Source: Amphiscolops sp. MND2022
Taxonomy: Eukaryota
DNA length: 64,000 nt
NCBI GenBank assembly: GCA_964187785.1
Contig: OZ076409.1
Location: forward strand, 48,238,001 to 48,302,000
Direction of reading: 5' to 3'
Shown: piece after piece, positions 32,990 through 63,950 of the stretch
Layout: every line of letters begins with the position of its first letter
Position numbering within the stretch: position 1 is the first letter of the stretch
Notes under the pieces: generated by a model
What the model was told of the DNA's origin: nothing
The model's database searches: none
Seen by the model: only the letters and a program-made list of their open reading frames with translations
Program-made: the position numbers and the translations under genes

Positions 32990-33270
32990 GGGTGGGCGGA
33001 AATAGGTCGAAGGAACGTGATCGAAAATCAGAGTTAGTCCTCAGGTCGACATACCAAATTTTTGAATGGGATCGAAACAACTCGGATCGTATTTTTTATA
33101 ACCATATGGCCATGCCTCAATGTCGCTACTTGGCGAAGGGAGCGAAGCGACCGAGCCATACAACAAATACGATGAAATTCGACCGCATTCCATTCGATCC
33201 CTGCAATTCGATCAAAAGGTTCGACCTCAGTCCTTTCGACCAGAAAAATTCGACCTATTTACAGCCACCC
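32990..33270. mobile_element. Internally deleted copy of the 31004-31845 MITE, 9-bp TSD
   Basis: ATATTGGTA at 32981-32989 and 33271-33279; same TIRs and right arm as 31004-31845. Confidence 0.85.
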
Positions 33271-33279
33271 ATATTGGTA

Positions 33280-33579
33280 GTGCCATTTGGGTGACAAAAA
33301 TTTCAGCCCATTTTGGCGACAATAATGTCGCCTAAATGTCCCGTTGACTAATGGCCAAATATGTTCACATACCCCTTGTGCCCTAAATCCAGGAGCGAAG
33401 CGAAGCGGAGCGACGTGCCATATGGCCATGCCTCAATGTTGCTACTTGGCGAAGGGAGCGAAGCGACCGAGCCTTACAACAAATATGCTAACCTCTTCAA
33501 ATATATCAGTTAATTGATCAATTTGATCAACCCATTCGGCCCAAATGACTGGTGACTGGTGACCAAATGTCCCTGACCC
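33280..33579. mobile_element. MITE with CATTTGG/CCAAATG arms carrying core 2
   Basis: Bounded by ATATTGGTA at 33271-33279 and 33580-33588. Core 2 at ~33360-33486. The left TIR is about 6 bp shorter than the right. Confidence 0.65.
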
Positions 33580-33598
33580 ATATTGGTAGGCTTGCCAT

Positions 33599-36500
33599 TA
33601 TAGAAACCTCTATTTGTAGAAACAGTGTTAATAAAAATTTTTTTTTCGTACAATGATCCTCTGAAACAAAATGACACTTTAAAATACATCTATATATAGT
33701 CCGAACTGGTCGTAGTAGATCGGGGAGGACTGTCACAATCGAATGTAGTCCCCAAGTCTCACAGGGACCGTCTCGGGGGAGTCCGTGTGTTATCCGGGGG
33801 GTCTTTGCTAGAGGTGACTCGTTGGGTGATCCAGTTTCATTAAGTCTATCACAACATCTGGACTCCTTGTCGGGTGATCCAGCAGAAACGATGTGGGGCA
33901 TGATATCTTTGTCCAGCAAAGGCTTGTTCTCATCTCCGAGGGACTCATTTGCTGGACAGTTGAACTTGAGTTGGGCTTTGGTTATAACTGCCGGTGTCTC
34001 TGGGGGGAATATGGGACAGCTTGCTTCTGGGGGCGTTGTGTAAACTGTGCACCGGTCAGAACTTGACGCTTTGTTTCCGGTTGCGGTGTTTGCGGCTTTG
34101 CTTTAGGTGGATCTTGTGTCTGTTCTGGGTTGGTTCGTTGATTCACCGGAGACAAATTCTCGGCGTTGTTGAGAGGCTTCAAAGGTTGGATAGTGCGGGT
34201 AGTACCGGGTATGTGGTCCACAACGATCTTGTCGAATTTCCGTAGAAATTTCCGATTCCGGATGGTAACTCTGCCCGATCCATCAACTTTGACGGTGTAC
34301 TGGTCGAACTGTTTCACCTCGATCACTAAGCCGGTTCGATCCCATCGCAGTGGATGGTTACCTGTCTCGTTCTGGATAAAGACCTGGTCGCCAACTTTAA
34401 GGGGTTATAACCGTACCGTGTGTTCGGTGAGGCGTTCAGCATTTCTGACATTTCTAGCACGCATTCATTATTCCCTGGCCCGTGATGTTTCTATCCAGTT
34501 GTGAGGTATGTATGAACCAGGCAGAATGGGGATGAAGTCCTTAATGGGTCATCTAAAGATCATTTGTGCTGGGGGTAAACCGGTATCGCGGTCAGGGGCG
34601 TTGTGGTATTGAAGCATGCCTCTTTGAAATTTGCCGAGGTTGATCTCGCCGTTCGGGCCAGTGTTGTCCATGAGCATGCGCTTGCAGGTCTTCACCCCGA
34701 GCTCAGCGCGACCATTTGAGTGGGCAAGTGCAACAGATGAGAGGCGGCGATGGACACCCCAGTTTCACAACAGTTGTTGTGTCTCCTCGGCCGTCAATTC
34801 AGGGCCGCCATCTGACGATAGTTCGTCTGCAATGCCGTATGTAACAAAAATTTCGCCTAGGCATTTTACAAGACCTGAAGAACCATCTCGTGATTGCTGC
34901 ACAATCGGCCAACTAGAGTAGCGGTTCAAAACCACCATGTAATTGCAGCCCTTGTATTTGAAGTAATCCGCACAGATGCACTGGAAGGGGTAAATTGGTT
35001 CCTGAGCCGCGAGCGGAGGGCCATGTGGTTGACTGGGCGCACGCTCGTTGCCTGACCGGCACTGGGCTCTCAAGTTTGCAATAGCCGGCGTAATGCCGGG
35101 CCAATAGACGCTAGATTCAGCCCTGGACGTCATGCAGGAGACACCTTGATGAGCAGAATGCAGGGTGTCTAGGATTAGTGTTCTTATTGGTGATGAAATA
35201 ACAGTCCGGTTGTTGTATAAATTCACTCCATCCACTGTGCTGAGTCCATCCTTGAATTGGAAAAATTCTCGTATACTCGGGGCAAGATCCAATTGTGAGG
35301 TAATGCCCGTCACCTATTGTTTTTCTCCGGGAATATGGATGATAGAGAAGCGGCATGGCAGCGTCTTCTCCTTGAGTGACAGTAGTTTTTATATCTTGAT
35401 ATCGCCAAGAGGGAGTCGCAGAACGATACTTGGTTGATGCGGCCAAGCCAAGATCGGATATCAGTGATGTTTCGTGGCGTAGGAAAGTCATGGATTGCGC
35501 GGATATGTCTGTTGTCACTGAGCTGGATATCGGTCGGAGTAATGACGAAACCAGTAAAATCCACCGTGTCGGAGCCAAATACAAAATTTTCGGGATTCTG
35601 AACAAGTCCGTGTCGACCGCTGATGTCTAGCCAACGACATGTTTGAAAAAAGCTTTCTTCGAGAGTGTCTGCCCATAAGCATGTGTCATCGATGCATTTG
35701 GTTTTGTTGGGGAAGGCATTGACAATCTCGTCGGATCTTCTGGTGTATCCGTCCTTTGAATCAGCGTAGCCCTGTGGACAAGTTTTGTATCGGTACCGAC
35801 CCCATTACGTGATGAACGTGGTGAGGTGGCGATCTTCTTCTCGGATTGGTACACTGTGAAACCCGTTGCAAGCATCGGTAATTGTCTTCTTGGTCCCTGC
35901 AGGTACCAGCGTTGCTTGGTGAAACGGGGATTGGGTGTGATGTGTTTCACGAACAGCATGTTTGTTTAGCACCTGCATGTCCACTAAGCATCGTGGTTTG
36001 CCGTTTTTCTTCCGAGCCGTGACCATTCATTGGCACCAGGTAACCGGTTCTCCAACTGGTACAGCCTCCAGAACCCCGATATGACATCTCTGTCGATAGA
36101 CTGCTTCACTTCCTGTTGCCAGTGTAGAGGAACTGGAATGGGTTTGTGGACTGCGATCGGCTTGGCTTCGGGGTCGACGTGGAGTTCCAACGGCGGGCCC
36201 TCCATCAGAGGGAGTGTTTGGCATCCGCAAGTGTTGAAAGTGCTGGATCGGTATCTGTCTAGTATCCAATTCTGGAGGGCGGTCCGGTTGGCGTCCGTTG
36301 CTGGGAATGGTAGAGCAGTTGGTAATGGTGGCTGCTTGGTGCGTATGGCTCAGGAGCAGCCGCACTCCTCGTCGCATGGGCTTGCTGCAGCTGAACTGAC
36401 TGACATGGGTTGCTGAGTGGGTGATCCGATTCGCGGGAAGTCGCTCGGGATAATTCCCAGTGTTGTACAGGCTTCCCGACTCAAGTATGCATCTTCTATC

Positions 36501-38194
36501 ACGTCGGTCACATAGCATATTTGTGCTGTCTCTATTACTTTGCCAGACCCCGACTTTTCGGACAGTCGTAGGATAACAGCCCCTAAAATTGGGATGACGT
36601 CACGATTCACTGCCGACATTTTTGTTTTCACGGGTATGAGGTCCAATTTTTTGAAACACAGTCTGTGGATGATTTTGATCCCAACTAAGACAGATTGACA
36701 ACCAGTATCAGCCGTCATGGCTATCATAATCTGGCGTGTCCTTGTCTGAAGGCGGTACCCCAGCTCCTCAGAGTCTTTTATGTGAGCGCGGGCAGTGAGA
36801 GAAACTGTCGGTTGTGGCGGCGACCATCTTGTGATCCAGCCGTTTCTGTCGTCGAAAATGTGGTGGTCAAGGACGACCGCCTGTTTACCGGTTTATGAGA
36901 GATGACCGTGCAGGCTACCGAGATGTTGCACATTTTGTGAATGACAGTGTTGGATTCATCCACATCCTTCGTTGTGTTTCCACCGATCCTTTTGGGTTTA
37001 GACCTACAGACGTTGGTGAAGTGGTTTCTTTTGTCACGCTTTGAACAAATTTTGTCCCAGGCTTTGCATTTCTCCTTCCTAGCCTGTGTATCGCGGCCAT
37101 CACCACGGCCTGGTTTTCCACAATTTCAGCATTTGACTATGTGTTGGTCTTTGTCCGTCTGTTCATACGAGGATACTGTCGCAGCACTCGGGTTCTGGAG
37201 AGTTCCTTGTGATCGTTTACCAGCTTCTTTGGCATCTATGAACTTGATCGTGTCCTCCAGGGTCATGTCCTAGTCGTTATGTCCCAGTACATCTTGCTGG
37301 ATGTCGCTGTAGCCAAGTCCTCTAAAGAGAGCGTCACGGACCATGTCGTCAGTGTAATTGACTGCTTCAAATGGTATGTGAGAGCATTTTTTCGAGAACT
37401 TGTAGACCTTAGCTTGGCCTCGTAAGCGAGCGGCAAAGCTCCTAACACCCTTTTCTCTGTCCTGTGTCATTGTCAGGAGAGTCATTCTGCTGACCATGGC
37501 GTTCTTAGCCTTCACGGCTAGAGCCTTGATTGCTGTCAGAGCGTCTATCGCGGTTGCCATGGCGATGTTTGAGTGGGAGCGGTGGAGGTCCTTGCGTAGA
37601 CTGTCTTCACAACATTCGAGGAGCTGCAAGGTGGCATCATGGTCGGCTATGCGTGTGGCTGTCTTGTAGGCGTCCCACTCGGTGATGGTGATGAGGTGCT
37701 CCCAGTCTTCACTCGTATTCTCTTTAGGCACTTTCGAGCGAGACAATTTGTCAGGTTCGGCCTGTTGACAGGCGGCGGGGGCATGTGAATACCCGTGCAC
37801 CGTGAAAAGTGCGATGGCTTGAGCCGCTTCAATATCCCACGTGGCGTAGGTACATCCTTCAATGGGGCAATTGAGCACCACCATGGCTGGCGGACACGTT
37901 TACTGGTTTGTTTTCTGCTCGGAGCACACGACACGTGATACTACAAGGTGATATTCATGAGCGATACAATTGTAGCTCCGATCCAGTTCAGGTTTTGTTA
38001 GGAATAAGATGCAAAGGAACGAACTAACGGGAAAAGGGTAGATGTTCCTTGTTTGCAGGATCTTTGTAGATTGCAGAAGTTGTTGAGAATAGATGATCAT
38101 ATGGAAACCTCTATTTGTAGAAACAGTGTTAATAAAACATTTATTTCATACAATGATCCTCTGAAGTAAAATGACACTTGAAAATACATCTATA
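33599..38194 (-). mobile_element. Degenerate Ty3/Gypsy LTR retrotransposon, Mag-like, short LTRs
   Basis: ~95-bp direct repeats at 33599-33694 and 38100-38194. Gag 37270-37884 plus two degenerate zinc knuckles ~37000-37135; protease ADTGCQS (~36700); RT (GKPRCLVDMQVLN, NGFHSVP, KCIDD); integrase HSAHQG...CADYF...SDGGPE...SNGRAE. Many stops and frameshifts. Confidence 0.92.
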
Positions 38195-39013
38195 AATTTT
38201 ACGATCTGTTATAATAGAGTTCGCGACATTGTACAGCCAACTTATTCAAAGGGACGAGATTGTTATGCCAGGACTGAGTGGGAATTTCGGCTAGATCCTT
38301 GCCAGCTTCGATTTTTCATTCCGTTTCGGTCGCTGTTTTTCGGCAATTTTTTGATTGGCTCGTCGTTTTATGTATCAGATGACAAAAAACAGCTGACCCT
38401 GCACTTCTTTATTTTCTTGCGCTTCTTTCTGACAACCTCGTCCTCGCTTTCCGAACTCGATGTTGATGAGCTTGACAGATTCAGGGATTCATTGACGTTT
38501 GCAACTTCTTTAGTTCAGTTTTAACATCCATTTGAACGTTTTCCAAGTACGAAAACTCCAACTGGGGTTGAACACATAACTCAGTACTCTGAGTTACAGC
38601 GACTTACTTGTTATGACAAGTAAAAGACATTAACGTCAAATCACCGATGTTTGGGAGTTGTCCACCCAATTGGATTATGGCTGTTCTATTTAATTGTAAA
38701 ATAGCAAACTCGTCACTCGGTAATTCCATTAGTGAGCAACTGTTCTGTTCAAAAGTCAAACTAGAAATGAATTGTGATGAGAATTCGTCCGTTTGGATGA
38801 AATTGAAGAAAGAAGTGACTTCTCGCACACTTGACTTCTGTTATGACTCACATAACTCATTCTTGTGTAAGTGGAAATAATATAAAACTTTTGGATGCCG
38901 AATGATGCATTAAGTAAACTTCTGCGTCAAGGCAGTAACTGAGGTAACAAAAACATCTTTGATTGAAAAAAATAACGAACCATCGATAGTTTTTCCGACA
39001 TCCAGTACGCCAT

Positions 39014-41965
39014 AGAGTTTCCCCATTTCGAAACGGAGTGTCGAATTGACAATTGAATTTTACCGTCTTTGTGCGACGCTACTCTCGGCAAGTTGGGCAG
39101 AATCATTTCCCTTTAGGGGGTTTATCGATACCGACACAGGTATAATGGAACCATTTAATGGGACATTCTGGGTCGTCACACCCTAAAATATCGGTGTTGA
39201 ATGTTCCTCTGCGAAGACAAAAACTACCATCATCTTTCTGCGGGTATGGATTCAAAAGATTTAGAGACGAAAGAATCTTTTGGAAGATAACAAGGTTTAA
39301 CTCTGTCTAAACTTACTCTCGCAGAATTGTTAGCTTGTTGAATTAGCATAGTTTTTGAATCACGTTCCAACACCGGAAAAGGACCACTATATGGTGCTTC
39401 CAAATGCCGTTTTGTGCGATCTACTCGCAGCCAAACATGGGAGCAATCCTGGAGAGCTTTGGGTTGGTAACTTATCCTTGGAAGTAATTTGCTGGATGGT
39501 GCAACCTGAAATTCCAAAAGCTGCAAATGAGTTGATAATTTGGAAACATAATCGATTATCGCGAGTAAATCTTGGTAGAGTGTCATTACCGAATATATTA
39601 GGAACGAAAGCATCAGAACCGGTGACTATTTGAAAAAGCGATACTCCTTGAGAATTTGGAATGATGTGATGGTGGTAGTACTACTGGTAAGGCTTTAATC
39701 CGTGGTAGAGGCGAGGCCGCTAAAGATGGCTTTAGTGTTCTGTGATAACGTTCAATTTTTCCAATTGCTTGAGGCTGATAAGGTGCAGTACGCAAGCGTG
39801 CAAAACCAAGCAATTTGGATGTTCGGCAAACAAATCGGATTCGAATTGAGGTCCCTGGTCAGTTGTGATTTATAATGGAACTCCAAATCTCAAAAAACAG
39901 CTTGACATGAACGTTTCAGCAACCAAAGTGGCAATAATTGAACTTATTGGAGTGGCTGCAACCCAATTGGTAGAACGATCGATGAAAGATAAAATATACA
40001 TGTGAGGGCAATCAGACACCGCAGGTAATGGTCCAACTATGTCCATATGCAAATGTTGAAATCGAGAAGGAAATCCTTCAGTTGGTGGTATCGGTGTGAT
40101 TGTATGTCTTGTGACTTTGCTCTTCTGGCATTCGAGGCATTCCTTGCACCATTCTTTGATGTCCTTGGACGAATTAGGCCAAGTGAAACGTGCATTATTA
40201 AGCTTGTTGGTTGCTTTCCAATTTGGATGCGACATGTTGTGAAAGTTCAAAAACAATCTTTTTCTCATGTGTTTAGGAACAATTGGGCGAGGTATAATAT
40301 TGTTGTCACACAAGATTGTTGTATTTGGTGGAATTTGTACTGATTTCATGCCGTGGCCTTAAACATTGTTCATTTCTTTTTTGATTTCTGACGTTTGCGC
40401 CTTAGCATTCGACTGTAAGTCGAAAGGATCGCACGTGAGAGCGGATATAAATTTCAGCTGATCTGTGTTTACTTCCTCAACCTCAGGACGAGACAAACAA
40501 TCAGCAACATCGTTTGAATCACCAAAAATATGGATTATATCATCTATAAAATCTGATAAAAACGAAAACTGGGGAGATTGTCTCGGAGAATGGTCGGCCT
40601 GTTTTTCGGAACGAAGCAATAATAGGTTTGTGACCCGTAAAAACCCCACAATGTCTCTTTTCTATGTAACGTAAAAACCGCCAGCCACTCTTTATCGACT
40701 ACTGAAAAATCACGCTCGGCAACTGATAACTTACGGGAAAAAAAGCGAGTGGGACACTGGTTCCATCCATTCTATTGACATGCAAAACGCCTCCAATGGC
40801 CTTGTCGGAAGCGTCCGTCGTAATTGTGAGCGTTCCATCGGGAATGAATGATATAGCAAGACACGTTCGGCTAATTTTTCTATAGGTTTGACAACGCTTC
40901 GATGTCCCCTTGCAAATTAGTGTCATTTGCAACTTTTGAATAACGCGCTGGTTGACCTTCGTCCAGTAATAATTGCAGTGGTTCTACTATTTCGGCGTAA
41001 TGAGGCACATGCTGTCTATAAAGAGAGAACATACCCTTCATCCTTCTTAGATTTTGATGTTGGCCGAGGCCAGGTTTTTATCGTTCCCGCTTTGTCTGCC
41101 TTTAGTTGTAGTCCTTCAGACGTGATCAGGAATCCAAGGAACTCAACTTCGTCTTACATCCATTCACACTTTTTCGAAGAACAACGGAGCCCGAACTTCT
41201 TCAATCGATCCAAAACAGCTGCGACATCTTTCAAATGGGTTTCAATATCTTCTGAAGCAATCAGCACATCATCGACAAAAGCAAAAACCATATCAAGACC
41301 TTAAAAAAACTGAATTCATGAACCTTTGGAATTTCTGTCCTGCGTTCCGGAGACCGGAAGGCATTCTTGGAAACTCGTACAACCCAAACCGTGTTGTCAC
41401 TGCTGTTTTTTTGATGTCATCAGAATGTATTGGTATCTGAAGGTATGCCTTAACCAAGTCCAACTTGCTGAAAACTTTTTTTCCGAATAAATTGAAATCT
41501 GATAATTGAGGAAGGGGATAGCAGTCGCGTGTTGTAACGGCATTCAGTTTTCTATAATCTTCGCGAGGGGTCCAATCATTTGGTTCTTTCTTTGGTACCA
41601 TGTGTAACGGTGAAGCAAATCGACTACAAGGGGGTCGATAAATTCCAGTATTAACCATTGATTCAAAACACTGCTCTGCTATTGTGTATTTTTCCGGACA
41701 TAGTCTTCTTGGAGTTCCCAATGGGCTGTCAGCGGTGAGCTCTAATCAATGAACTGTTTGATGCAGTACCGTCCCTTCAAAGTCGACATCTCCAAACACG
41801 TCTTTGCCCAAAATAGTTTGTAAACGTTCGTCCCCGACATCAGGAATATCGATGTCAACTTTAGTTACAGAAAGATGGTTGCATGTTGAATTTCGTTGTC
41901 GTAGAGAGTGTAGTTGTGTTGTCTTTAAGTAATCCGTTTTTACAGTCTATGAAAAATTATTTCGA
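39014..41965 (-). mobile_element. Degenerate Ty3/Gypsy pol (RT-RNase H-integrase-PHD), 5'-truncated
   Basis: RT ASPLHMVPKK, FSKLDLVKAY, GLRNAGQKFQR, FVDD; RNase H TDASDKAIGGVL; integrase HNMSHP...CLECQKSK, LHMDIVGPLP, TDQGPQFES, KIERYHRTLK; GPY/F motif YSGPFPV. Purine-rich GGGGAAAC followed by TATGGCG at 39014 suggests a PPT and 3' LTR start. Confidence 0.92.
39088..39222 (-). pseudogene. ING-type PHD finger at the C-terminus of the Gypsy integrase
   Basis: Single frame: FCLRRGTFNTDILGCDDPECPIKWFHYTCVGIDKPPKGK*FCPTC. This is the C4HC3 pattern with one C->R (cgc) and one W->stop (tga, 39105-39103). It is one frameshift away from integrase ORF 39230..39613. Confidence 0.88.
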
Positions 41966-41989
41966 TTCCAAGGATATTACAAGACGCAT

Positions 41990-44800
41990 TAGCGACGTTT
42001 AGCGAACGCCTTTTGGAAGTCTAAAAGGATGAGGGATACATTTTCATGAGACCATGAATCACAATTTTCCGAAACAGCGTTGAGGATCCGTAGATCTGGA
42101 GACCGTCTAGGTCGAAATCCATATTGGCTGTCGCTGCAAAACTCAAGGAAGCATCAAATATAGTTTCATATACTCTCAAGATTTTCAATCAGATGGTTAC
42201 AAGGCCGATAGGCCTATAATTGTGAACATCGGTTTGAAGCCCTTTTTAAAGTCAGGAATAACATTCGTATGTGTCCATATTTGCATGTTTCCATGAAAAT
42301 CCTGGTCCGGGCAATGTTTTGTACAATTTTGAAGTTATGAAAGGTATAATTTCTGGAAGAGATTCCTTGGAAAATTGCGGCGGAAGTAAATCACTGCCTT
42401 CACTCTTGCGGAGCTTTGGAGCACTGAGATGTCGGTGAATGCCTTCGTTATTGAAATGAAGGCGTATACTACCAGCAGAAGGAATATTAACAGTAGTTTC
42501 AGTGGAAAGTGCAGGCCAAATGGAGCTGAAAAATTGGTTGAAAAGGTTGGTTTTGTCGGCTGAGGTTCTTGCGTTTTTTGATTTCCAGTGTATTTGATTC
42601 GCGGTTACTTCACTTTTTTACCAAGCTTTCTCAAATATCCGAACAGTTCTTTGAGTATCTCGTAGCAAGTTTTATTGTCATAGAGACGCACGTTTAGTTT
42701 GGTCTTAATGAGATCAAATTTCTGTTTCTTTGCTTCATTGAAAGGATATTCCTCGAGAAGCTTCTCGGCAGTGTTTAATTTTCTCATGAGATTTGAAGAT
42801 TATTGACTTTCCCAAAGTGGGGGCGAATAACGGTGTTGGGTGCGTTTGGGGTGTTTTTCTAACTTTTTCTTGACCCAGTCAAACCATTCATTCAACATTC
42901 TATCTATGTTCGAATTAAACTTGGGTAAAAAAAGATCGTTAATGATGTCAGACTTCAAGAAAAAAAATTACATCGACAAACGCTGTAAGTGTTTGTGCGC
43001 CCTTTGGCTTGGGAAGTTCCACGTCACATGAAATTGTCATCAAAATAGGACTGTGATTTGATTTAACTGTGGAGGACTCAATTAACTGTGTCTACTTGGA
43101 CATTTCCGATTAGGTCTGGAACGGTGGTCAGTACGATATCTAGAAGACGAGATTTCCTCGTGTTGAAATTCACATTTTGTGCGAAATTATAGCTGTAAAT
43201 TAGTTCCAAATTTGCGGACTGATAAACGTTCTCGGAAGTTTGACTGTTCCAATTTGTTTTATTAATATTCAGATCGCCCATAATTGTCCACCAAACACAA
43301 CACTGTTCGCTTAAAAGGTTTCTTCCCATTTTCAAGTGGTTCTATAGGCACTATTTTCAGGAGGATTGTAGAGGATACAACATCAGAAAGATGATGAGAT
43401 ACGACTAATTTTTGCAGCTGAGCTTGTTTGTTGTAAATTTGAAGTTGTCATGGAGAGGGGCAAGTGTGAAATCTTTGTCTTGATTCCAAGCAAGGCACCC
43501 CCATGCTGAGTTGCAGAATTTGTAAACTGCCGGTCTCCTCGTAAAACTGAATACCTTGGCAGGAATAACTCTGCATTTTTCATGCCCGGTGTAAGCCAAG
43601 TATCAGTTAGGCAGAACAAGTCGAAGTTTCAAATCAGAATAGACTGAGAAGGATGTTTTAGCCTTCTCTGGCAAGTTTTGATGCTTCGGAGGTTTAAGAG
43701 CAGGATTTTCAAAGGTAGTCACTTTTCTTTTACCTCAGTCGGTTGAAGGGCAAATCTCTTTGCTTTTGACGGTTAGTTTCAGATGTCTTATCTTGATGTT
43801 CTTCAGTGATTCATCTGCGTTGATCAACTCACGTCGAGTTTGGATCAATTCATGCTCGAGTTTTTGTTCTTTTCTATTGAGAGCTCTGCTCAAACAGATT
43901 GGGCTTCCATATTCTTTGAGCATGTATCCTTTTGAAGGAATCTTTTTGACATCCCATGGGTTGGAGAGACAGACTAGCAGCGTTCGTGGTCTTTTTTGAT
44001 TGGATGCATATTTTCCAATTCTTCCATTGTAGGAGATTTTCTGACAAAATCAAATGCATCAGAGAGGGAATGATAATCGTAACCTAACAGCTTTTTTCGG
44101 AACTGGCCCGTTTCGTCACTTTTGAGATATAACTTGTGAAGGCCAGCAATTCTGAATTGATGACTCGTTGCTACATTGGACCCATTTCCACATTTTACAG
44201 ACTCTTGAGCAAGAAAAGAAGGAAGAGTTTTCCAAACGATGCAATTTTATTCAGCGACTGTTTTTTGAAGCGAAGTCAATGGTTCTTTGATTGGTTTCAG
44301 AGACACCTCTAAACTTTCAATAGTACGTGTCAGAAGAGATTCGGTCTTGCTTTTTCAAACTTGAAATACTTATCAAACTTTTTATCAAATTTTGAAGTAG
44401 CAAATGGAATGGTCTCACCGGAATCATTGCAGGATTGATATTTCCAAAGTTACCCTGGGACTTTCTTCAGTTGAGATAGGATGCTTAAAGGAACACGAAC
44501 ATAATCTTTGTGGAACCAAGAAGCACATTGTTGGCAGTGCAGACTTCCACTCTTGCACTCCTCGAGACATTGGTCACACGGCCAAGGTCGCTGTAAGTTC
44601 GTTCCGGTTTTCTTCGACTGTTTTTCTCGTAAATGGTGAAGCATAGTTGTTTTTTCTTTGGTACGAGCTCTTTATTTAATAAGTTTATATGGCATATATG
44701 GCATCTTATTGCTTGGCCTTTACCGAACTGACCTGTTGTCTTACTGGTAGCCATTTGCGATGCATTGAATTTTCAAATCATTGCATTGACTGAGTGCATT
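41990..44800 (-). mobile_element. CR1/L2-group LINE, 5' part intact and 3'-truncated; ORF1 with PHD finger, ORF2 APE + start of RT
   Basis: ORF1 CDQCLEEC...CQQCASWFH (~44500-44580); APE FCLTDTWL, HGGALLGI, IMGDLN, LLDIVLT; RT NYRPI, QYGFRP, LDFQKAF ending at ~42000. Confidence 0.85.
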
Positions 44801-45339: not shown

Positions 45340-46360
45340 ATGCCTGTCACTAGAAAACAGAAAAGTAAAGCGAGACGTTCAGGAGATGCAGATATGATCC
45401 CAGACTTTTAAGGAACAAGGACGAAATAATAGGAAGTGCTCATTATGAAAAGGAGAGAGTGAGTTTGGAACTTCTGGCAGAAGGCCTGGAAGCCCCATTG
45501 ATGATGCTCTATTTCATCCGATTTCTTTCTCGTTCTCAAACTCAAGACAGAATGAAATCAGGGGATTTGACGGAAATGGTCAAAGTACCACTAAAATAGA
45601 TTCCGGTAGTGAGGTGAGCAGGTTATCTGGGGAATTAAACAAAAGAACAACACAGGAATTGAATGGGTTGATGAACAAAGTTAATTTGCAGATCGAGAGG
45701 GCCGATACACAGGACCGATACAGAGCCCCATTGATGATGCTTTATTTGACCCTTATTCTATCTCTTACTCAAACTCACGAGAGAATGAAATCAGGGGATT
45801 TGTAGGAAATGGTTAAAATACCTTTAAAGTAGATTCCGGTAGTGCGTTGAGCAGGTTTACTCGGGGAAATAAACCAAAGAATAACACAGGAAAAGAATGG
45901 GTTGATGAACAGTGTTAGCTTGCAGATACAGAGGGCCGATACAGAGCCCCATTGATGATGCTCCATTTGATCCTAATTCTTTCTCGTTCTCAAACCCAAG
46001 AGAGAATGAAATCAGGGGATTTGCCGGAAATGGTCAGAATACCTCTGAAGCAGCTTCCGGTAGTGAGTTGAGAAGGTTTACTCGGGGAAATAAACCAAAG
46101 AATAACACAGGAAATGAATGGGTTGATGAACAGTGTTAGTTTGCAGATACGGAGGGCCATATATGAGGCTATGAATGAGCAATTTCTGCCTCAACTCCAA
46201 GCCTCACTTTGGGCTGTCAACGGACAACAGTCCCATAGTGGACGGAACTTTCCGGGCGAGAATGTAAATCCGAAGATACTTTTAGCAGGAAGGTTGAAAG
46301 TAGTTCTAGAGATGAACTCCTCAGAATTTCAAATCGTGAAAAAGATGATGATGCTCGTTA
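45340..46360 (+). repeat. Decayed coding-like repeat with three tandem ~220-235-bp units
   Basis: agccccattgatgatgct...agaatgaaatcaggggatttg...gaatgggttgatgaaca recurs from ~45491, ~45724 and ~45944. The region begins ATGCCTGTCACTAGAAAACAG (MPVTRKQKSKARRS). Confidence 0.7.
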
Positions 46361-48779: not shown

Positions 48780-51300
48780 AAGAGAAATGTTGCGAAACAA
48801 ATGATGCGTAAAATGAATGTTTTTGTTGAGGGTTTATCTTTCAGATTGGAAAACGGAATGTTTTTCAATAATCGAAAAGATTTTCGTATTGGCGACTTCT
48901 TTTTACATATAGACCTGACAAGTTCATCAAATGTAATAGTGTTTGGGCTGTGCTCAATTTCGGTAAGTCAATTGGTATTAAATCATGGTCTTTCAACCAA
49001 TCATAGGCCTTTCTCAAACTGTTGTCCACTGATTTCGCTTGGGTAACTGTTCGACGAAATTTGAAATTTGTTCACTGTGACCAAGGAATGTGAGTTTACT
49101 GTCTAAATGAATTCAGAAAAAATTAGACGAATCCTTTATTGGAAACTACTTTCTCTGTAAAGTCGATTGGGTAATATTACGAGAGCCAAAGCTCATAACT
49201 TCACATTTGGAGGCCTTATTATACGAAAACCAATTGTTAATTTCGTCTAAATTGAGTTTTAGCGATGATTCCGTTTTTTCCTCTGATTTAAGGATTGAGG
49301 TGTCGTCAGCAAAAATAGCAATGTTTTTTTGCGTAGAACATGCTAAATTGTTAATGTAAACTAGGAAAATGAACGGTCCAAAAATAGAACCTTCAGAAAC
49401 GCCTGTTGAAATTGGTTGATATTCTGTTTTTTTTTACTCCAGAAATTGTCATATATTACTCATGTATTCTTAAATCAATTAGTAGATTAATCCTAAGCCC
49501 TAACGAATAAAGTTTGTTCATCAGAACAGTATGATCCAACGAATCGAATGCTTTCTTCAAGTCCAAGAAACAAGCTCGACCAAAATTTCAATTGTCTATT
49601 TCTTCTCGCATATAGTCTGTGACACTAACTATTGCCTACACACATGAACGTTTAGCTCGAAATCCAAATTGATTGGAGAGTATAGTGTATTGGTATTGAA
49701 AAACCTCACCATTCTAGATCAGTGAAGTTTTTCACATAGCTTGGTATTTTGTCTCTGGAATTAACTGGTCGGTAGTTTTCTCGACAATCTAACTCGCCTT
49801 TCTTTAATTCTCACTCGCCTCGTACAACTCCTGCTACTTTAGGAAATTTTGGTAACGTTTGCGTGTCTATACACTGATTAAATGCTTCCATTACGTTCTT
49901 CTCGATTACGGGAAGCAGCATTTCAACATTTCGTTGCTGATGCTATCAGACCAAACTTTGTTTTGTTCTTTGAACTTTGAATGAGTTTTAAAAAATTGTG
50001 TTTCATCAGTTTATGGTGAAACCAGATGTTGTGGCGTTGTTCATAACTTTCACAATTTCGTCGTGTAGCGGGACTTTTGTTGACAAGAAACAGCCAATAT
50101 TCATTCACTTTCTCGATTTCAGGAATTTCAGGTTGATTTTAATTTTTTGGAAGATGGTTTTTCAAATTTCGGTAAATAGTTTTGCTTGATGCACTGAGCC
50201 CCGATTTCTTAAGATTGCAGTCTTTCTTTGCAGTTCGTATCAACGATGTAACTACATTCTCTTGCAGTTTGTACGTTTTTCTATTAGTCTCACTAGGCGA
50301 CGTTAACCAGTTTTGAAACAGTTGACCTCGTTCACTTTTTACAATATCTTCTTTTGTATTGGTAATCCAATCTGTTGGATTTTCTTTTGTTTTGAATTCT
50401 GTTTCTGGTGCTCAAGGCATTCGAAAGTAGGTCTTGAAGTTTGTTCTGTATAATCTAAGTTGTTTACATATAGTTTCATTAACCTTTGTTCGAGAAGAAA
50501 AGAAAACGAAATTCCAGAGTATTGTCGCCTTTAGAGTTTTCAGGTTTCTCGTTAAAAATTTGCTGTGACTTGCTTTTGTTACTTCAAGTTTTACATCACG
50601 AGTAGCGCCTAGTACTGTATAAAGATCGCTCATTGTTGTTTTCTCAGTTTGATGGGTGGTCTGGTAACTAGTAAAGTATTGGCCGAGACATGGTGATGAT
50701 GTTGGTGTCACCAGTGTTGTTTCATTGTTTTGGCTCCTGAAGTTTTAGGCCAAAAATAAGTGTTCGAATTTAATTTAATCTGCTGAGTCTTTGATAGTAT
50801 CGAATTTAAAGTCCATGAAGATATTATTGTCATGTTTGAGACTTCTCGAAATCTGAACTGGCAGTTCGAATTCCGGAAAAAAAATGCAGTGAGCTTGTTT
50901 GCTTGGGGTCTGTACACGACAAAAAAAATTTCTGAAAATTGATTCAATAATTGAACACTCAATGTCGGTGTCGTACTTAATTGCCAAATATTTCAAAGGT
51001 TCATACACGTAAAAGGCTACACCTCCTCTTTTTCGTAGTTTTTCCCCGGTTTGGATTGAATTGGGTGGTAACTAGCGATGAAAGATTCTTTTTGGTTTTC
51101 TAGCATTCCGCCAGTAGTTTTTAGGTTTTCAGTGTCCAATTTCGTTAGCCAGGTTTCCGTCAGTGCAAAGATTTTTGGTTAATGAGAAAATGATTCGAGC
51201 TCAACCAATAGCTCATCATGATGACATCGGAGTGATTGTATATTTAACGCCAACAAAAAGTCCTTATTTTGACAAAAACTTTTTTGGTTTTGCAACATTG
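48780..51300 (-). mobile_element. Degenerate CR1/L2-group LINE ORF2 (APE + RT)
   Basis: Minus-strand motifs in order: LTETWL (~51155), GGVAFYV (~51015), QFGFRAKRS (~49660), LDLKKAFDSLDH (~49550), GVSEGSIFGPFIFLVYIN (~49380), IFADD (~49310). Confidence 0.85.
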
Positions 51301-54479: not shown

Positions 54480-55983
54480 CTGACTTTTTTGTGCCCGACT
54501 GTTACAGTGGCTGATTTTAGTCGACGCTTTTCTAGTGAAAAGAGACCGACTTTTACAGTGGCTAGTTTTTTTTCGTCAGACTTTTCACTCATCGCGTATG
54601 TACCACTTGTTGTGAAAGATTCATTTTTTCCAAAAGTACTTAGTACTTGATTCTCAACGCATCCAAAGGCCTCTACCTTGATATGCAAAACCCAGAAGGG
54701 TCCCCGCTTCCAATTTTTCGGCACTATGAGACTTTCCCCGCCCCATTATTTGGCTTTGTGTGACTTTTTTCGGAATTTTTAAAGTCCTCAAATGGTCCCC
54801 CCTTCTTTTTTTTGGTGTTTTGCACCTGAATGAATGTTGAAAAAGCCTAAAGGGCCCCATTTTACATTTTTCCGCACTATGAAACTGTTAAAAATTCTCA
54901 TTTTTTTGGAAAATTAAAAAAAAAATTTCGAAATTTTTCAATGTCTCCGAATTCTCGCTCCTTCATTTTTTTTGATATTTTGCAACAAACGTGATTTTCA
55001 AAAGCCCAAAGAGTCCCCCCTTCTACAATTTTAAACACCTTGCGCTTTTTGAGCCTTGAATATGGCGCTGACTTTAGATGTTCCCGTCTTGTTTTCTTTT
55101 TTTCGTCAAACCACAGAGCTCACCCGGTATGTGCCACTTTTTAGTACAGACTTTAATCGTTTTTGCGGGACGCATACGGTGACTTTTTCCGTGCTTCAGT
55201 TGGAAAATTTTTTGTGCATTTTCAAAACCACCAGACTGAAGGGTCCCTTTTCAATTTTTTTCGACACTGTGAGACTATGTTCGAAAATTTTTAATGTCTC
55301 CAAAAGGACCCCCGTCTTTTTTGATATTTTGCAATAGAATGGATGTTGAAAAAGCCAAAAGGGTCCCCCTTTTACATTTTTCGGCACTATTGGAGTGTTC
55401 AAAAGTCTAATTTCTCGTTTTTTTTCCAAAAATTTTTATTGTCTATAAGGGGCCCTTCAATGTTTTTGACATTTTGCAACAAACTGGATTTTCAAAATGC
55501 TCAAAAAGCTCCCCCTTCCACAGTTTTTGGCATTGTGAGATTTTTCACGAATATTTATCGTCTTAAAGTTTGGTTTTCTCCGTGGACCAGCACGCTGTAT
55601 CCGAATTTTGTTTCTTAAGACCGTCGTTTTTTCGGCACTGTGCGACTTTTTTTTCACATTGTTTTTATCGAAGCCCCCTCAACTTTTACTAGAAACGAAA
55701 CGTTTTTCAAGCACAAAGGACTCCTTAGACTTTTCGGCACTATGTGACTTACCGGAGACCTTCATTAAAACATTTATCAGAATTTTCAGTTCTTTGAGAT
55801 GTTTTTTTTCTGCAGTTGGAGAAAAAGTGGGATTCGAGTCTTATCGAGCATGGAAGGCACCCTTTGGGTCTTTCGAAAGTGTTTTCTAAGTTTTTTATAA
55901 AAACGTCCTGAGCATATTTTAAAAACTTTGAGAGCTTTTTGAGCCTTAGATATTGCGCCAACTACAGACATTCTAGTCTTGTT
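54480..55983 (+). mobile_element. Two adjacent Helentron/HINE-like copies, orientation opposite to 21570-22820
   Basis: ttttagtcgacgc...ccgact hairpin at ~54515-54552. Ends gagcctt...ggcgc...tcttgtt at ~55050-55093 and ~55940-55983. Internal aagggtccccc/ttttcggcact repeats. Confidence 0.7.
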
Positions 55984-57421
55984 TGTAGACTCCGAGAATC
56001 TCTTCCCATGCTTGTGTTTTGACGGGAATCAATGATAAATCTGGATGTGATGTTGTTGAAGAGATCGGTAGTAACCGTTGCCTTGTGATTCATGCTTTTA
56101 CCTCAGAAAAGGTTAATGTGGCTATAGCACCATACAATCGATTTCGATCAATGTTTGGCCAAACAAAAAAAACTTTGTCAACCAAACACTCACAAGAACA
56201 ACCATCGAATGCAATTTATAATCTTTATACCAAATTCTAGTGAAATTATTCACATGAAAACATCACAGATCAAATCGACCAGGCAGAAAAATTCTTTCAG
56301 AAATGAAGCAGGAATGTAAAATTCATGAGTAACAAAAATTTGAGGAAAAAGATCAAAGTTTCTGAAGTATCATGGCGTCGAACATCCTCTAGGTATAAAA
56401 CAAAAAGAAAGTCCTATATTCTAGTTTTTTGTGTTGTAGTTTTTAAACCTCATATTCTAATTTGTTCGATTTTGTTATTCACAGATGTCTGATTCTTTTT
56501 TTCCACTTATTAGATAGAAAATTGACTTTTCTTCCTACTTCATCAACTCTTTTCTAACAACTTTTTCTAAGCGTTTAAGGTGCTGGAATTTTGTGTAACG
56601 TTTCGCTCAATCCACTATAGTGCATAGTATTACGTTTTCCGTATTTTACTTCAGAAATTCTCATAAGATTGTCACGGACTCGATTTACCGCGTTTTTGTC
56701 CACTCGCTTTCAATCCAGAGAAATCCGGTGGCGGTGGTTTTATGTGAGGGATAGATACTACACTAAGCTTGGACTGACCAATAAAGCAGCTTTACCAGCT
56801 GAGCAGGTGATGAGGGACACGCATTGTAATCATGCTTCGTTCACTTCCTCTCTGTTCGTACCATGGTATTTTCCTTCTACAAATACAGGGAGCAAGAGAG
56901 CAACGAAAAAGGAGGCAAATAAATTAGTGGTATGCTTTTCCAAAGATACCATGAAAATACCAGAAAGGCGCCACTTTTCAATACAAATCCCCTCTAATCG
57001 TTCCCAGCTCAATTTACATCATTTTATCCACTTTTTTTGTTTGTTATTTGTCAACGTGTTTCGTTTTTTTTTCGATTCGAAAACGTCAACCAATATTCCT
57101 GACAAATCTATTCGTTCATTTTGGAAAATAGATTATAAATAGAACTGAAACCACATTTTGACAAGCTTCAAATGGACTACATGCTGTAAACAGATTACGC
57201 AACGCAAGGTGCGTTTGCTTTGTCATAAACCGCTTAATTTCTACGGTTACCAACGGGCGGTGGCGGAGGCCATTTTGTATTTCAGCAGCCAAAACAAATT
57301 CACTGGAAGGCAGTCGTTACGCTTTGTCAAAAAAGGTCGTTCTGTAATGTGAGCAAAACGCCACAATAACAAAAATAAAAATTTTATTCCAAAAACCTGT
57401 TCACTTCTATACAAAATAAAA

Positions 57422-59701
57422 ATGGACACGGAAACAGAAGGAGGAGGACAAACCCAAACTGTGGATCAGCAAAGTGACCAAACTGCCAAACTGCCTTCGA
57501 TCGATCCACAAAGGGGGTCCAATTATCCTGATAACCCAAACGGTAGCTTTGCTAAGACTTCCAACCATAACTCTGCCAATAACAGTGACTCAGGTATCGA
57601 AGCCGAAGCTCCAGATGTTATAGACCCAAGATCCAAAAGAAACGAAACTAAACACGACACTACTGGTCCAAAAGCAACGCAAAAGCATGAAAACGATTTT
57701 CAAAGTGTGTTGCCAGTCATTGCGAACCCAAGGTCTAGACTACGCAATAGGAACGATCAACAGGTTGCTGGCACCAATCAGGATCCCAACTCCAGAGATC
57801 TCGGTAATAGTGGACTAACTACACATTCAAACCCCTTACATGCCAACAATGGTTATATATACCAGGAGAAACTTAATTTCCGCAAAATGGCAAAGTCGCG
57901 AGTACGGAGTTTAGATAACTTAGCATACTGTACGCCGCAGCCATCCAATTATAAAATCTTTAACGAGAAGGTTGATTTTCGTGCCCTCGCCAGATCCAAG
58001 TTAGATACGTACAGCTCTCTAGATTACAAGCACAAACGACCTCAAGTTGTCATTTTTCATGAGAAAGTCGACTTTACCTCAAACGCGAAAGCAAGAATAG
58101 GAAGTCTGGAGAATTTAAGCTTCCAACCTCGATCAAACCCCAATTTGAGAATTTTCAATGAACCATTACACGTGGAGGCCAAACCCAAAATCAAGTCTTT
58201 CGAGAATATCAACTTCTCGCCAAGAAAGATTGAATCGAGCGTTGTTCAACACAGCAGAGACTGGTTCACACCGGCCAAAAGTACGAGTATACGTATCGAA
58301 AATTCTTACTTTCCGTCAATCAACAACACGAACCCAATTCAGCTTGAGACAGCTTACAAGCGACGATTCACGCCAAGGTACTCCGAGAACGAGCAGCCTG
58401 GAATCGACGACTCAAGCGTCAGTAACTCGATTCTATCAATCTCAAAAACCCCAAGACACCATAACAAACAATCCTTGTCTTACCAATCCGAACCTGTTCT
58501 GAACAATCAAAAGAAAGTTCACTTCATCAACAACGATGAACTTTCAATTGCACATCGTAAAAAATTTTCTCAACCGGCCGCAGAGGATAATCATTTCCAA
58601 GCTATTGATGAAGAAAGTGGACAGATGTCAGCTCAAGTTACCCCAAGAAATATAGAAACGCGCCAAAGCAAGTCGAGATTGCGAGGAAGAAGACAGTCTA
58701 AAGTCTTTCCAGATGGGCCTTTAAGCTCCAGATCAGAATCCAGGCAATTCGGTAACGTCTCTAGGCTTGGTACACGCGATGCCTTACCAGAAATTGGGGA
58801 GCAAATGGGACAAAATAACGGGAATGACACCCCTGACGAGAACCACGGAGTTTTGCAAGCATTTGTTGTTGAACAAATTTATGATGCTATTGTTGAGAAA
58901 AGTGCAGCCCCAGTACAACTTTCTCCGCGCAAAGATCGCGACAATGATAATGCCGTCAAGGGAAGAGTGGAACCTATCGTAGAGCCCGAAATAAAACAAC
59001 CACAAGAAAAAAGCTTTGAAATATCAAACTCCAATCAAATCTCCGGAAACAACTCAGCCTCCCATGTTAATGAACAGAACCCAAAAACTGTTCTGAATAA
59101 CAACAACCCACGAGAAAGCACTTTAGAGGCTTCGAAGAGTGAATCTCTTCATGAACAGTGCCCTGAAAATCTTGTCGACGATTCTGAAGAAGAACGCAAT
59201 TCATTGGAAAAAACATCTAATGTTGAGAAAAATGATTCTACAATGAAGCAAGAAGCGACTGTAATTGCTTCTGGCGAAGAAGAATTTAAAACGCAGGATG
59301 CAAAATCTGAGGAATCAGATCATCTTACAGGAGAGAATGGGGAATCTCACCTTGAAAATCCAACCTTATCCGTTGATTCAGCGAAAGAACTGCAGGAAAA
59401 ACGCTCAAGATCTCACGAAGAAAAGGATCCAGGCCCCAACTTGGGCAAATGCAATGATGATGTTCAAAGTGAGCAAACTGGAGGCAAAGAAGAGAAAAAG
59501 GGCCTTGAAAACAATTCTGATACATTGAATGAGTCCTTCGAGGTTGGTGACAATGCAAGTAGTCACTCAGGTTCGGGACAAAATGATGACGCCATTGAAA
59601 CAAATCAGTCACAGCGGGAAATATCTGAAGAAACCCCCAGGGAAGTAACTCCTTCAACGAGAGAAGACGACGGGTACCAAAACAAGCCTTTTTCTGAATA
59701 G
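57422..59701 (+). CDS. 759-aa largely disordered protein with four Tau/MAP2/MAP4-like microtubule-binding repeats and an acidic C-terminal half
   Basis: The only long intact ORF, with ATG in an aaaaATGG context. Repeats of ~32 aa at aa ~145-270: EKLNFRKMAKSRVRSLDNL, KIFNEKVDFRALARSKL, VIFHEKVDFTSNAKARIGSLENL, RIFNEPLHVEAKPKIKSFENI (cf. tau R4 EKLDFKDRVQSKIGSLDNI). Confidence 0.85.
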   Translation: MDTETEGGGQTQTVDQQSDQTAKLPSIDPQRGSNYPDNPNGSFAKTSNHNSANNSDSGIEAEAPDVIDPRSKRNETKHDTTGPKATQKHENDFQSVLPVIANPRSRLRNRNDQQVAGTNQDPNSRDLGNSGLTTHSNPLHANNGYIYQEKLNFRKMAKSRVRSLDNLAYCTPQPSNYKIFNEKVDFRALARSKLDTYSSLDYKHKRPQVVIFHEKVDFTSNAKARIGSLENLSFQPRSNPNLRIFNEPLHVEAKPKIKSFENINFSPRKIESSVVQHSRDWFTPAKSTSIRIENSYFPSINNTNPIQLETAYKRRFTPRYSENEQPGIDDSSVSNSILSISKTPRHHNKQSLSYQSEPVLNNQKKVHFINNDELSIAHRKKFSQPAAEDNHFQAIDEESGQMSAQVTPRNIETRQSKSRLRGRRQSKVFPDGPLSSRSESRQFGNVSRLGTRDALPEIGEQMGQNNGNDTPDENHGVLQAFVVEQIYDAIVEKSAAPVQLSPRKDRDNDNAVKGRVEPIVEPEIKQPQEKSFEISNSNQISGNNSASHVNEQNPKTVLNNNNPRESTLEASKSESLHEQCPENLVDDSEEERNSLEKTSNVEKNDSTMKQEATVIASGEEEFKTQDAKSEESDHLTGENGESHLENPTLSVDSAKELQEKRSRSHEEKDPGPNLGKCNDDVQSEQTGGKEEKKGLENNSDTLNESFEVGDNASSHSGSGQNDDAIETNQSQREISEETPREVTPSTREDDGYQNKPFSE

Positions 59702-62852: not shown

Positions 62853-63950
62853 CACTATGGTATCAAAAAGCTACGTACACCAACATTTTTTTAAAAAAAA
62901 CACAGAACAGAGTAAAATTTGAAACAACTGTTGAAACGAATAATAAATCAATATCCCGTCAAACTACCATGGTTTTTGGTTACCTTCACCAGACGATTCT
63001 CATACGATGAGTACAAGTTGCGAACAACATCAGGGTTTATGTTGTTCCACACTTCCATAACTTTTTCTTCTAAATTCTCCCAGGTAACAATCTGACCTCG
63101 CAAGCTTTGTTTTAAAATGGCCCAAATAGTTTCAATAGGATGCAGGTCAGGACTGTAAGCTGGCCAATCCAGCACCTCCCGTTGCTTTTGGGCCAGAAAA
63201 TTGCGAACAACTTCACTTTTGTGTACTGGGGCGTTGTCTTGCTGGAACCCTAAATCCAGTATATTCAAATGTCGATCGCTTTTTGCGCTTTTTGAGCCTT
63301 AGGTTTGGCGCCGACTTTAGATTTTCTCGTCTTGTATCATTGAGAGCACCATCGAAAGCGCTATTAGTTCACTCTACGAAAGTGATTGATTTGATAAAAT
63401 GTTTTATTTCGTTTTGGGTTTTTCGGCACTTTGAGATTTTTCTCAAGTATTTTTTCTTTCAAAAAATTCCAAATTTTTTCCCATTTTTGGTGGAAAATTG
63501 ACGCTGGATAAAAACCAAGGGGCTTTTTCAACATTCTCGAGCACCAGCGTTTTCTGATCAGTCTTCGTTTTTTTGTTCAAGTTGAATTTTTTTGCGGCTT
63601 TTCTAGAAACAATTTCGTACTTCTTCAGGATTCTTCGAATAGTACATTTAGAAACTGTCTTTGACGTTGAAAAAGAGTTTTGCAGTACTCTTACTCGTTC
63701 TAATGTTGTTTCTGGGTCTTTTTCCACTCTTCGAACTATTAGTCTTTGCTTTTTTTCGCTGAGCTTTTCTGGCCGGCCTGGAGGTTTTTTGCCACATAAG
63801 AGTTCGTTCTCAAAAACGCTGATAAGCTGTTTGGGCTGTCGATCGAGATTTAAGACCCAACTTTTCTTTAATTTCTTTGTATGATAAACCCATTTCGCGA
63901 AGTGTAACGATTTTGCAAACAACGTATGAATCCAAAGGTTTGACCATTTT
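62853..63950 (-). mobile_element. Tc1-family (DD34E) transposon remnant, centrally disrupted
   Basis: GRPEKLS and VSKCTIRRIL HTH region (63443..63922); FQQDNAPVH...WPAYSPDLHPIE with 34 residues between D and E (62948..63268); TA|CACTATGG TIR-like end at 62851-62880; HINE end fragment at 63282-63335. Confidence 0.9.

Follow-up and report, generated by a model that had tools for sequence, protein, structure and literature searches.

The window that we analyzed is a 64,000-nucleotide stretch of contig OZ076409.1 from Amphiscolops sp. MND2022. On its forward strand lies a 759-amino acid ORF, which runs without an internal stop from an ATG at 57422 to a TAG at 59701, and is the sole frame of more than 210 amino acids within the window. 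At the stop frequency of the flank, the chance of 759 stop-free codons is ~1.5e-17; the chance of an open 289-codon tail is 4e-7 to 9e-9. The rest of the window comprises repeats and transposon fragments. The features of the locus, with the evidence for each in brackets, are as follows:

57422..59701, + strand: whole coding sequence, a single open frame of 759 aa (colinear orthologues of 725–867 aa)
57422..57445, + strand: start MDxETEGG, marking the likely true start codon (common to all four orthologue clusters)
57569..57598, + strand: NSAxNSDSGI, aa 50–59, then [ED]xE; similar to a beta-TrCP degron, except that its final Ser is Glu (alignment)
57857..57955, + strand: repeat 1, aa 146–178, core SRVRSLDN, linker TPQPS (Pfam, profile alignment)
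57956..58051, + strand: repeat 2, aa 179–210, most divergent core SKLDTYSS, linker KHKRP (Pfam, profile alignment)
58052..58150, + strand: repeat 3, aa 211–243, core ARIGSLEN, linker QPRSN; top Pfam stretch (Pfam)
58151..58243, + strand: repeat 4, aa 244–274, core PKIKSFEN, linker SPRKI invariant, candidate proline-directed kinase site (alignment)
58244..58285, + strand: partial fifth repeat, aa 275–288, WFTP invariant (repeat homology judged by eye)
58286..58921, + strand: motif block, aa 289–500, with PSIxNxNPI, KKVHF plus helix, FQAIxEES, TPR, RxxLPxI, and YDA (51/212 positions invariant, nine sequences)
58511..58570, + strand: KKVHF, putative RVxF-type PP1 docking motif, aa 364–368, then predicted helix, aa 371–383 (invariant in 9/9; consensus fit; model)
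58922..59698, + strand: acidic, fast-evolving, predicted-disordered tail, aa 501–759, likely projection arm (alignment, charge, model)

Orthologues fall into four clusters, namely P0001 (this protein), P0002/P0003 (813 aa, 55% identical), P0004/P0152 (866–867 aa, 31–32% identical), and P0006/P0153-5 (725 aa, 32–33% identical). P0152 is the RefSeq entry XP_075263072.1 (LOC142354622) from the acoel Convolutriloba macropyga, which is already in the database, unnamed, as an "uncharacterized protein"; it shares the start, layout, and motifs of our protein, with 32% identity overall and 52% in the repeats. P0152 lines up with the unannotated ORF call P0004 along its entire length (95%), so the RefSeq annotation has the same start and tail. 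An initial reading of this DNA, made from the sequence only, had described a single uninterrupted ORF, and this was borne out by the RefSeq orthologue, which is colinear with the plain ORF call over 867 aa; the coding region has no intron. All four clusters begin with MDxETEGG, and a search from 56500 to the ATG found no T-rich acceptor. A large upstream acidic exon is therefore unlikely.

We also considered whether the tail might go untranslated in vivo, because it is spliced out or represents read-through into an intron. Weak donor-like sites are found at 57802, 58750, and 59467. However, the tail is open, acidic, and 225–302 aa long in all four clusters despite 70–80% divergence, its other frames contain 8–34 stops, and the RefSeq model includes it, all of which makes an untranslated tail extremely unlikely. 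Nesting of the gene inside another was rejected after a Pfam scan of 158 open frames, in which all domains matched within the window were those of transposons and the 10 kb that follow gave no match; the scan covered frames of at least 75 aa that do not overlap the gene, including a minority of those at 33–42 kb. Likewise, a contaminant or symbiont origin was rejected, given the 104-Mb contig on which the gene lies, the animal-type transposon debris around it, and the 48.9-Mb acoel contig in the orthologue's cluster. The orthologues point to an acoel host. Mitochondrial cox1 reads best under table 5, the invertebrate mitochondrial code (458.9 bits, vs. 457.5 for table 13, 445.1 for table 9, and 436.9 for table 4), which fits an acoel without proving it and speaks against a platyhelminth, echinoderm, or cnidarian, but does not identify the phylum.

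The sequence-only reading had assigned the protein to the tau/MAP2 family, and the check with Pfam PF00418 gave a match at E 2.6e-15 (56.5 bits vs. a cut-off of 27), which resolved into four stretches when the repeat region was scanned alone. Orthologues P0002 and P0004 also exceed the cut-off (49.1 and 58.3 bits), and the top solved-structure match of the protein is human tau (E 2.8e-9). The ESM Atlas returned generic tau-repeat clusters only (0.78–0.79), which serve as leads only. The cores of the repeats are at aa 160, 193, 225, and 256, with a spacing of 33, 32, and 31 residues, and are followed by the stub DWFTPAK. The four repeats of ~32 aa and the partial fifth had been recognized previously, although the core KLDTYSS was missing from the earlier list. 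The spacing of 31–33 aa agrees with the 31-aa step in which tau spans its repeats (bioRxiv 10.1101/267153, available in part). The linkers are TPQPS, KHKRP, QPRSN, and SPRKI, none with a GG, and the only GGG of the protein is at aa 7, so that the reported replacement of PGGG holds.

According to the same partly available preprint, cryo-EM shows tau running along the protofilament via S258, K259, I260, S262, and N265, with H299 packed against phenylalanines of beta-tubulin, and there is no clear density for PGGG in the maps (bioRxiv 10.1101/267153). We compared these positions across 16 repeats from the four orthologue clusters. The K259 position is basic, the I260 position is hydrophobic, and the S262 position is Ser/Thr in 16/16 repeats; basic-x-x-Ser/Thr is thus kept throughout. 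Asn occupies the N265 position, termed universally conserved in the available part of the tau preprint, in 12 of the 16 and is missing from every repeat 2. Conservation is lower at S258 (8/16, with Pro or Ala in repeats 3–4 of this protein) and at Gly261 (3/16), and a proper KxGS is found in one of the four repeats of this protein. The tau His position is Tyr/Phe in all 16 repeats; Tyr at this position is common in other family proteins (112/631 cores). A GG linker occurs in 0/16 repeats, compared to a GG no more than 10 aa away in 526/631 cores of other proteins. Since the contact residues are mostly kept, and PGGG is not resolved in the tau maps, the repeats are, by analogy with tau, likely to bind microtubules. 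Their affinity may be lower than that of tau, given that KxGS is present in only one of four repeats, S258 is changed in repeats 3–4, and repeat 2 lacks the Asn.

The repeats are preceded by 145 aa and followed by 485 aa. Net charge is −5 for aa 1–143, +11 for the repeats, +5 for aa 273–470, and −35 for aa 471–759. The sequence-only reading had described this arrangement as a reversed architecture with a long acidic tail. The acidic tail is confirmed and is indeed C-terminal, but an acidic N-terminus in the canonical order persists in short form, the first 80 aa having a net charge of −7 here and between −6 and −9 in the orthologues. Because the N-terminus is still short-acidic-then-basic, we see in the layout a C-terminus that has been greatly lengthened, and not a true exchange of ends. 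Similarly, the "basic Ser/Arg region" said to follow the repeats is mildly basic, but is better termed a block of conserved short motifs.

All four clusters have the same start and layout and have lost GG, whilst the rate of change differs along the protein. Between P0001 and P0002, 13% of positions differ in the repeats, 38% in the middle, 40% in the N-terminus, and 72% in the tail. Across nine sequences, 60/145 positions are invariant in the repeats, 51/212 in the middle, and 1/259 in the tail, and yet the net charge of the tail stays at −27 to −34 in all four clusters. In a structure model built from a nine-sequence alignment, mean pLDDT is 36.9, with 713 of the 759 residues <50 and the tail at ~30; disorder read from these values is a prediction only, as a shallow alignment can itself lower pLDDT. 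No SxIP motif occurs in the protein, only SxLP forms that are not conserved. In the available parts of two papers, tau, MAP2, and PTL-1 are described as having a spacer in their N-terminal arm, and the projection domain's length in tau/MAP2 determines microtubule spacing (PMC6279373, PMC5298879). By analogy, the balance tips slightly toward a spacer function for the acidic tail.

To see how rare these features are, we turned to a library search that returned 228 proteins at E ≤0.001. The comparison uses the best 150 of the 228, with P0003 added and P0021 dropped (no scored repeats); all have two or more repeats, and the set is biased toward query-like proteins. Among these 150 matches, the median length after the last repeat is 52 aa, and at least 200 aa follow the repeats in 12: five acoel entries (455–536 aa) and seven others (219–333 aa). 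An acidic tail of at least 200 aa after the repeats was found in 6/145 non-acoel proteins among the matches listed (four Glomeromycota, one chytrid, and one that is Glomeromycota-like by eye). GG is absent from the repeat region in 7 of the 150 compared, comprising the five acoel entries, Halteromyces, and a 121-aa protein whose PGGG falls immediately beyond the stretch that was counted; 25/150 have no strict PGGG. The loss of PGGG and the C-terminal acidic domain had both been put forward as departures from the family. Both are present, but the layout is rare, not unique: either oddity has fungal precedent, and the two occur together only in the acoel group among the matches listed.

Vertebrate tau (MAPT), MAP2, and MAP4 share with the acoel protein four tandem PF00418 repeats of 31–33 aa and a partial fifth, the equivalents of K259, I260, S262, and mostly N265, predicted disorder, and a large acidic region. 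They differ in that the acoel repeats lie in the first third of the protein, with 475–530 aa behind them, and lack GG linkers, the His is replaced by Tyr/Phe, and a single coding exon carries a conserved block with an RVxF motif. In the canonical layout, as given in the available part of PMC6279373, the repeats of tau are near the C-terminus, behind an N-terminal projection domain. The acoel protein thus has the three-to-five tandem repeats of ~31–32 aa and the predicted disorder of tau/MAP2/MAP4, but neither a GG linker in each repeat nor C-terminal repeats with an N-terminal projection domain. As two defining layout features fail, we file it as working like tau, and not as a canonical member. 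The same repeat type is found in invertebrate MAP2/Tau-like proteins (PTL-1, Drosophila tau, Lingula, urchin, and planarian MAPT-L1 to L3). However, C. elegans PTL-1 (PMC5298879, available in part) and the tau/MAP2-like proteins of Lingula and sea urchin have C-terminal repeats, GG linkers, and N-terminal acidic arms, and the 252-aa C-terminal extension of a bed-bug isoform is basic (+21). The planarian MAPT-L1 to L3 are lineage-specific paralogues, as in acoels (PMC6743461, in its available part), and the layouts in Ciona and Rhizopus are termed "distinct" in the available part of PMC4815063.

The closest parallels in layout are proteins from Glomeromycota (Funneliformis CAI2170922.1, Geosiphon KAG9303619.1, and Ambispora CAG8489956.1), which have a basic N-terminus, repeats, and an acidic tail of 225–333 aa, but keep PKGG/PGGG linkers and His/Tyr, and whose shorter tails are unrelated in sequence. 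Common descent or transfer of the layout would explain the same order of parts, and in one tree a branch (82/76) had the acoel and the Glomeromycota rows together on the same side. That branch is unstarred, however, comes from a simpler model that tends to group long branches, and disappears under a mixture model with more rows. Furthermore, the fungal proteins retain GG linkers, and profiles of the acoel N-terminus, middle, and tail found no fungal match among 167 proteins (best non-acoel E 0.06, 1.9, and 0.3, respectively). A shared origin of the layout is therefore very unlikely, and the acoel and Glomeromycota layouts are likely convergent. Halteromyces radiatus XP_051397433.1 (Mucoromycota) likewise has no GG linker and an aromatic residue at the His position, but it has three long-spaced repeats followed by 92 aa (net +1) and no shared flanking motifs.

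The suggestion of a lineage-specific protein is upheld as far as we searched. A four-orthologue profile scored against 7993 candidates of 398–1516 aa found no further orthologues; this search missed P0004 and is not exhaustive. Our literature search, with thin coverage of subscription journals, turned up no account of either an acoel tau-like protein or XP_075263072.1. Within the portions available, acoels are not mentioned among the invertebrate family members of PMC4815063 and PMC8985376, tau is not mentioned in PMC8097308, and bioRxiv 10.1101/2025.06.08.658386 contains nothing relevant. The protein is a real variant within the PF00418 repeat family, undescribed as far as we searched.

Outside the repeats, two invariant motifs, KKVHF and DSGI, were missing from the sequence-only reading. 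In the N-terminal region, NSA and NSDSGI are invariant in 9/9 aligned sequences, and DSG plus a hydrophobic residue arises in 1–2% of shuffles of this region. The consensus of the beta-TrCP degron is DSGxxS, of which acidic variants exist; all four clusters have DSGI[ED]xE and thus lack the final Ser. The motif block at aa 289–500 had no match in profile searches of the other tau-family proteins compared and no second copy in this genome. The SPRK, TP, and TPR sites are conserved and are candidate proline-directed kinase sites.

KKVHF fits the RVxF consensus, (R/K)-x0-1-(V/I)-{P}-(F/W) as printed in the available part of PMC8835298; the role of RVxF in PP1 docking is covered in that of PMC9929477. 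The motifs were chosen after the alignment had been seen. The strict RVxF pattern, in the form generally quoted, occurs in 1–4% of shuffles of the post-repeat region (17–32% for the loose form) and in 7/146 other tau-family proteins. Since the four clusters are relatives, the invariance of KKVHF reflects one origin that was kept, not four independent gains. The helix at aa 371–383 is the best-scoring stretch of the structure model, at moderate confidence, and the surroundings of KKVHF are of low confidence. A single-sequence, uncontrolled complex prediction for aa 352–400 with the PP1 of this genome, supplied as two exon-encoded halves, scored 0.26 against a mark of 0.34. On the strength of the motif, the middle block may dock PP1, at odds that we put just short of even.

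An alternative is that the protein is mainly a signaling scaffold (for PP1, proline-directed kinases, and a degron), whose repeats have drifted from lattice binding and weakly bind free tubulin or another filament. The good conservation of the middle block, the loss of all GG linkers, the mostly changed KxGS, and the long stem branch of the acoel clade would all fit. Against this, the anchor residues and the repeat spacing are kept, the repeats are the most conserved region of the protein, and PGGG is not a resolved lattice contact. We consequently consider a scaffold with drifted repeats improbable.

The genome contains three further PF00418 loci, C7, C4, and C8, all ordinary tau-like. The nine repeats of C7, which mostly end in GGG, are encoded in a single 340-aa frame that ends ~30 aa past the last repeat. 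In C4, the repeats are spread over three or more exons and a stop follows shortly, and the last repeat ends in HRPQPS; for C8, one repeat-bearing exon was found. The sequence-only reading had raised the idea of a retrogene and proposed a search for an intron-containing parent. C4 and C8 do have introns, but neither profile scores nor trees single out a paralogue as the parent. A retrocopy of an intron-containing tau-like gene, which then gained a new C-terminus, would account for the intronless coding region and for the similar PQPS linker in the last C4 repeat. However, the repeats of C4 and C8 score low against the repeat profile of this protein (ranks 183–719 of 742; C7, 52–709). Moreover, long exons are ordinary in this genome; acoel genomes average ~4–6 exons per gene (table of PMC10565955). 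As C7 also has a long exon, and PP1 of this genome has two coding exons, the absence of introns alone does not show retroposition. Repeat trees (26 and 18 rows chosen from 167 proteins, excluding C4 and C8 owing to the introns within their repeats) support the acoel clade at 100/99–100, on a stem of about one change per column. They do not settle its placement and name no parent, and grouping with C7, the one paralogue represented, is not rejected (p-AU 0.37). Retroposition is thus a possible, but rather unlikely, origin.

Our preferred reading, which we regard as probable, is that this is an acoel tau-family paralogue with tau-like repeat binding on the outside of microtubules, a C-terminal acidic spacer, and a middle block predicted to dock PP1. 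By inference from tau structures, each repeat would lie along the protofilament and bridge tubulin dimers via the S/K/I/S/N anchors, with the non-glycine linkers as plain connectors. The tail may project outward as a charged brush that replaces the N-terminal arm of tau, as the biology of tau, MAP2, and PTL-1 suggests; such a role would explain the retention of its length and charge in spite of a sequence that is not conserved. Going by the motif, PP1 at KKVHF could reverse phosphorylation of the Ser262-equivalent and SP/TP sites, and its docking might either keep the protein on microtubules or bring PP1 to them.

Because ordinary tau-like paralogues exist in the genome, a role in a specialized microtubule bundle is plausible. 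By analogy, the cytoplasmic microtubules of sperm are a plausible leading guess; the sequence-only reading had already mooted ciliary or sperm microtubules. A sperm-specific MAP could stabilize or space the axial or cortical microtubules of acoel sperm, which have additional cytoplasmic microtubules, the arrangement of which has shifted within acoels and is axial in Convolutidae (PMC3789126, available in part). The fast evolution of the tail fits such a role, as do the three ordinary tau-like loci left for other functions. Of the three MAP2/Tau-like genes in planarians, two show enrichment in the testis, but knockdown of these testis paralogues caused no defect (PMC6743461, in its available part). 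Nor is there an RFX/X-box near the gene: with the consensus taken from general knowledge, we found 10 matches in the window (chance mean 5.9), none within 9 kb. Neurons, ciliary rootlets, and gland cells are equally possible, and a sperm-specific function, although a candidate, is on present evidence doubtful.

In its boldest form, the interpretation would be a new acoel tau-derived class in which hinge-less repeats anchor PP1 on microtubules and an acidic brush projects from the C-terminal end, together organizing the unusual cytoplasmic microtubule arrays of acoel sperm. This full combination is speculative and improbable as a whole. The significance of the protein is limited in that it is confined, as far as we searched, to a small group of worms, that fungi offer a precedent for either oddity, and that a flexible brush might perform alike at both ends. 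If true, the boldest reading would provide an animal tau relative that binds microtubules without any PGGG and carries its own phosphatase against the Ser262-type switch. If KKVHF binds PP1, a tau-type module would be joined to the class of enzymes that undo its phospho-switch. In the tau literature, so far as available, PGGG counts among tau's best-conserved features, has an unsettled job, and is not resolved on the lattice; a four-repeat animal protein that does without GG linkers in several species is thus a natural test case for the purpose of this hinge. Likewise, a C-terminal tail that is unalignable, but keeps its length and charge, puts to the test whether a projection arm can function at either terminus of the protein.

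Tau-like sequences are present elsewhere in the source genome (G000), and we list here those on contigs C4 and C7, together with the only gene for the catalytic subunit of protein phosphatase 1 (PP1) that was found in the genome.

G000:C4:86532300-86536400 (extracted loci L022, L023), tau-like paralogue with introns
L023 3640-4113 and 5185-5604, exons immediately 3' of the C4 tau-like gene, coding for repeated DPxTG(K/V)xY beta-hairpin-like units
G000:C7:53155988-53157010 (L002 1321-2343), another tau-like paralogue, nine 30-aa repeats, C-terminally placed, in one exon-sized open frame
G000:C4:74619000-74633000 (L032, L033), PP1 catalytic gene, only two coding exons, ~13 kb apart

The last full repeat of the C4 paralogue closes with HRPQPS in place of the canonical PGGG, an ending that resembles that of repeat 1 in the window's protein (TPQPS). 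The DPxTG(K/V)xY exons downstream of it, which match DUF6440 weakly (E 1.6e-7), may belong to a separate gene, or may provide an alternative C-terminus for the C4 tau-like gene. For the C7 paralogue, exons 5' of the repeat-bearing frame were not located; an exon judged by eye to be ionotropic-glutamate-receptor-like lies ~16 kb upstream.

Third-position GC is bimodal among the coding regions compared (window 57422-59698 versus L022, L023, L025, L032 and the C7 exon). It is low in the window's gene (0.39) and the C7 exon (0.42), and high in the tau-like exons of C4 and C8 (0.70-0.90) and in PP1 (0.74).

Elsewhere in the window, the following features were noted.

57262-57281, GGCCATTTTG, 150 bases 5' of the ATG, within single-copy DNA
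33000-42000, 49149-49433 and 62951-63949, retrotransposon fragments (integrase, reverse transcriptase) and a fragmented Tc1-type transposase
45491-46158, tandem array of three 221-bp copies
21752-22461, 127-bp units
54680-55980, a dispersed repeat that bears GGGGACCC, in several copies

GGCCATTTTG is a putative YY1-type site. The GGGGACCC-bearing repeat also adjoins genes on other contigs.

Among the homologues, P0021 (Didymodactylos carnosus CAF1334890.1; 968 aa, partial sequence) was matched over 10 stretches in the repeat search (E 4.6e-15). It consists almost entirely of about two dozen HxPxxxxAxSxIDxW-like units, which resemble the N-terminal half of a tau repeat and lack the GG linker. 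In P0017 (Irineochytrium annulatum KAJ3193049.1), what appear by eye to be ankyrin repeats come after a set of nine tau-type repeats, an arrangement that may reflect either a fusion or a gene-model join. Finally, the members of a Glomeromycota subfamily (P0011, P0018, P0023, P0051, P0074 and P0076) carry an acidic tail after the repeats, and these tails share the motifs SPISSLALD, LSFEVNVxRKS and a terminal YxxSW[IL].
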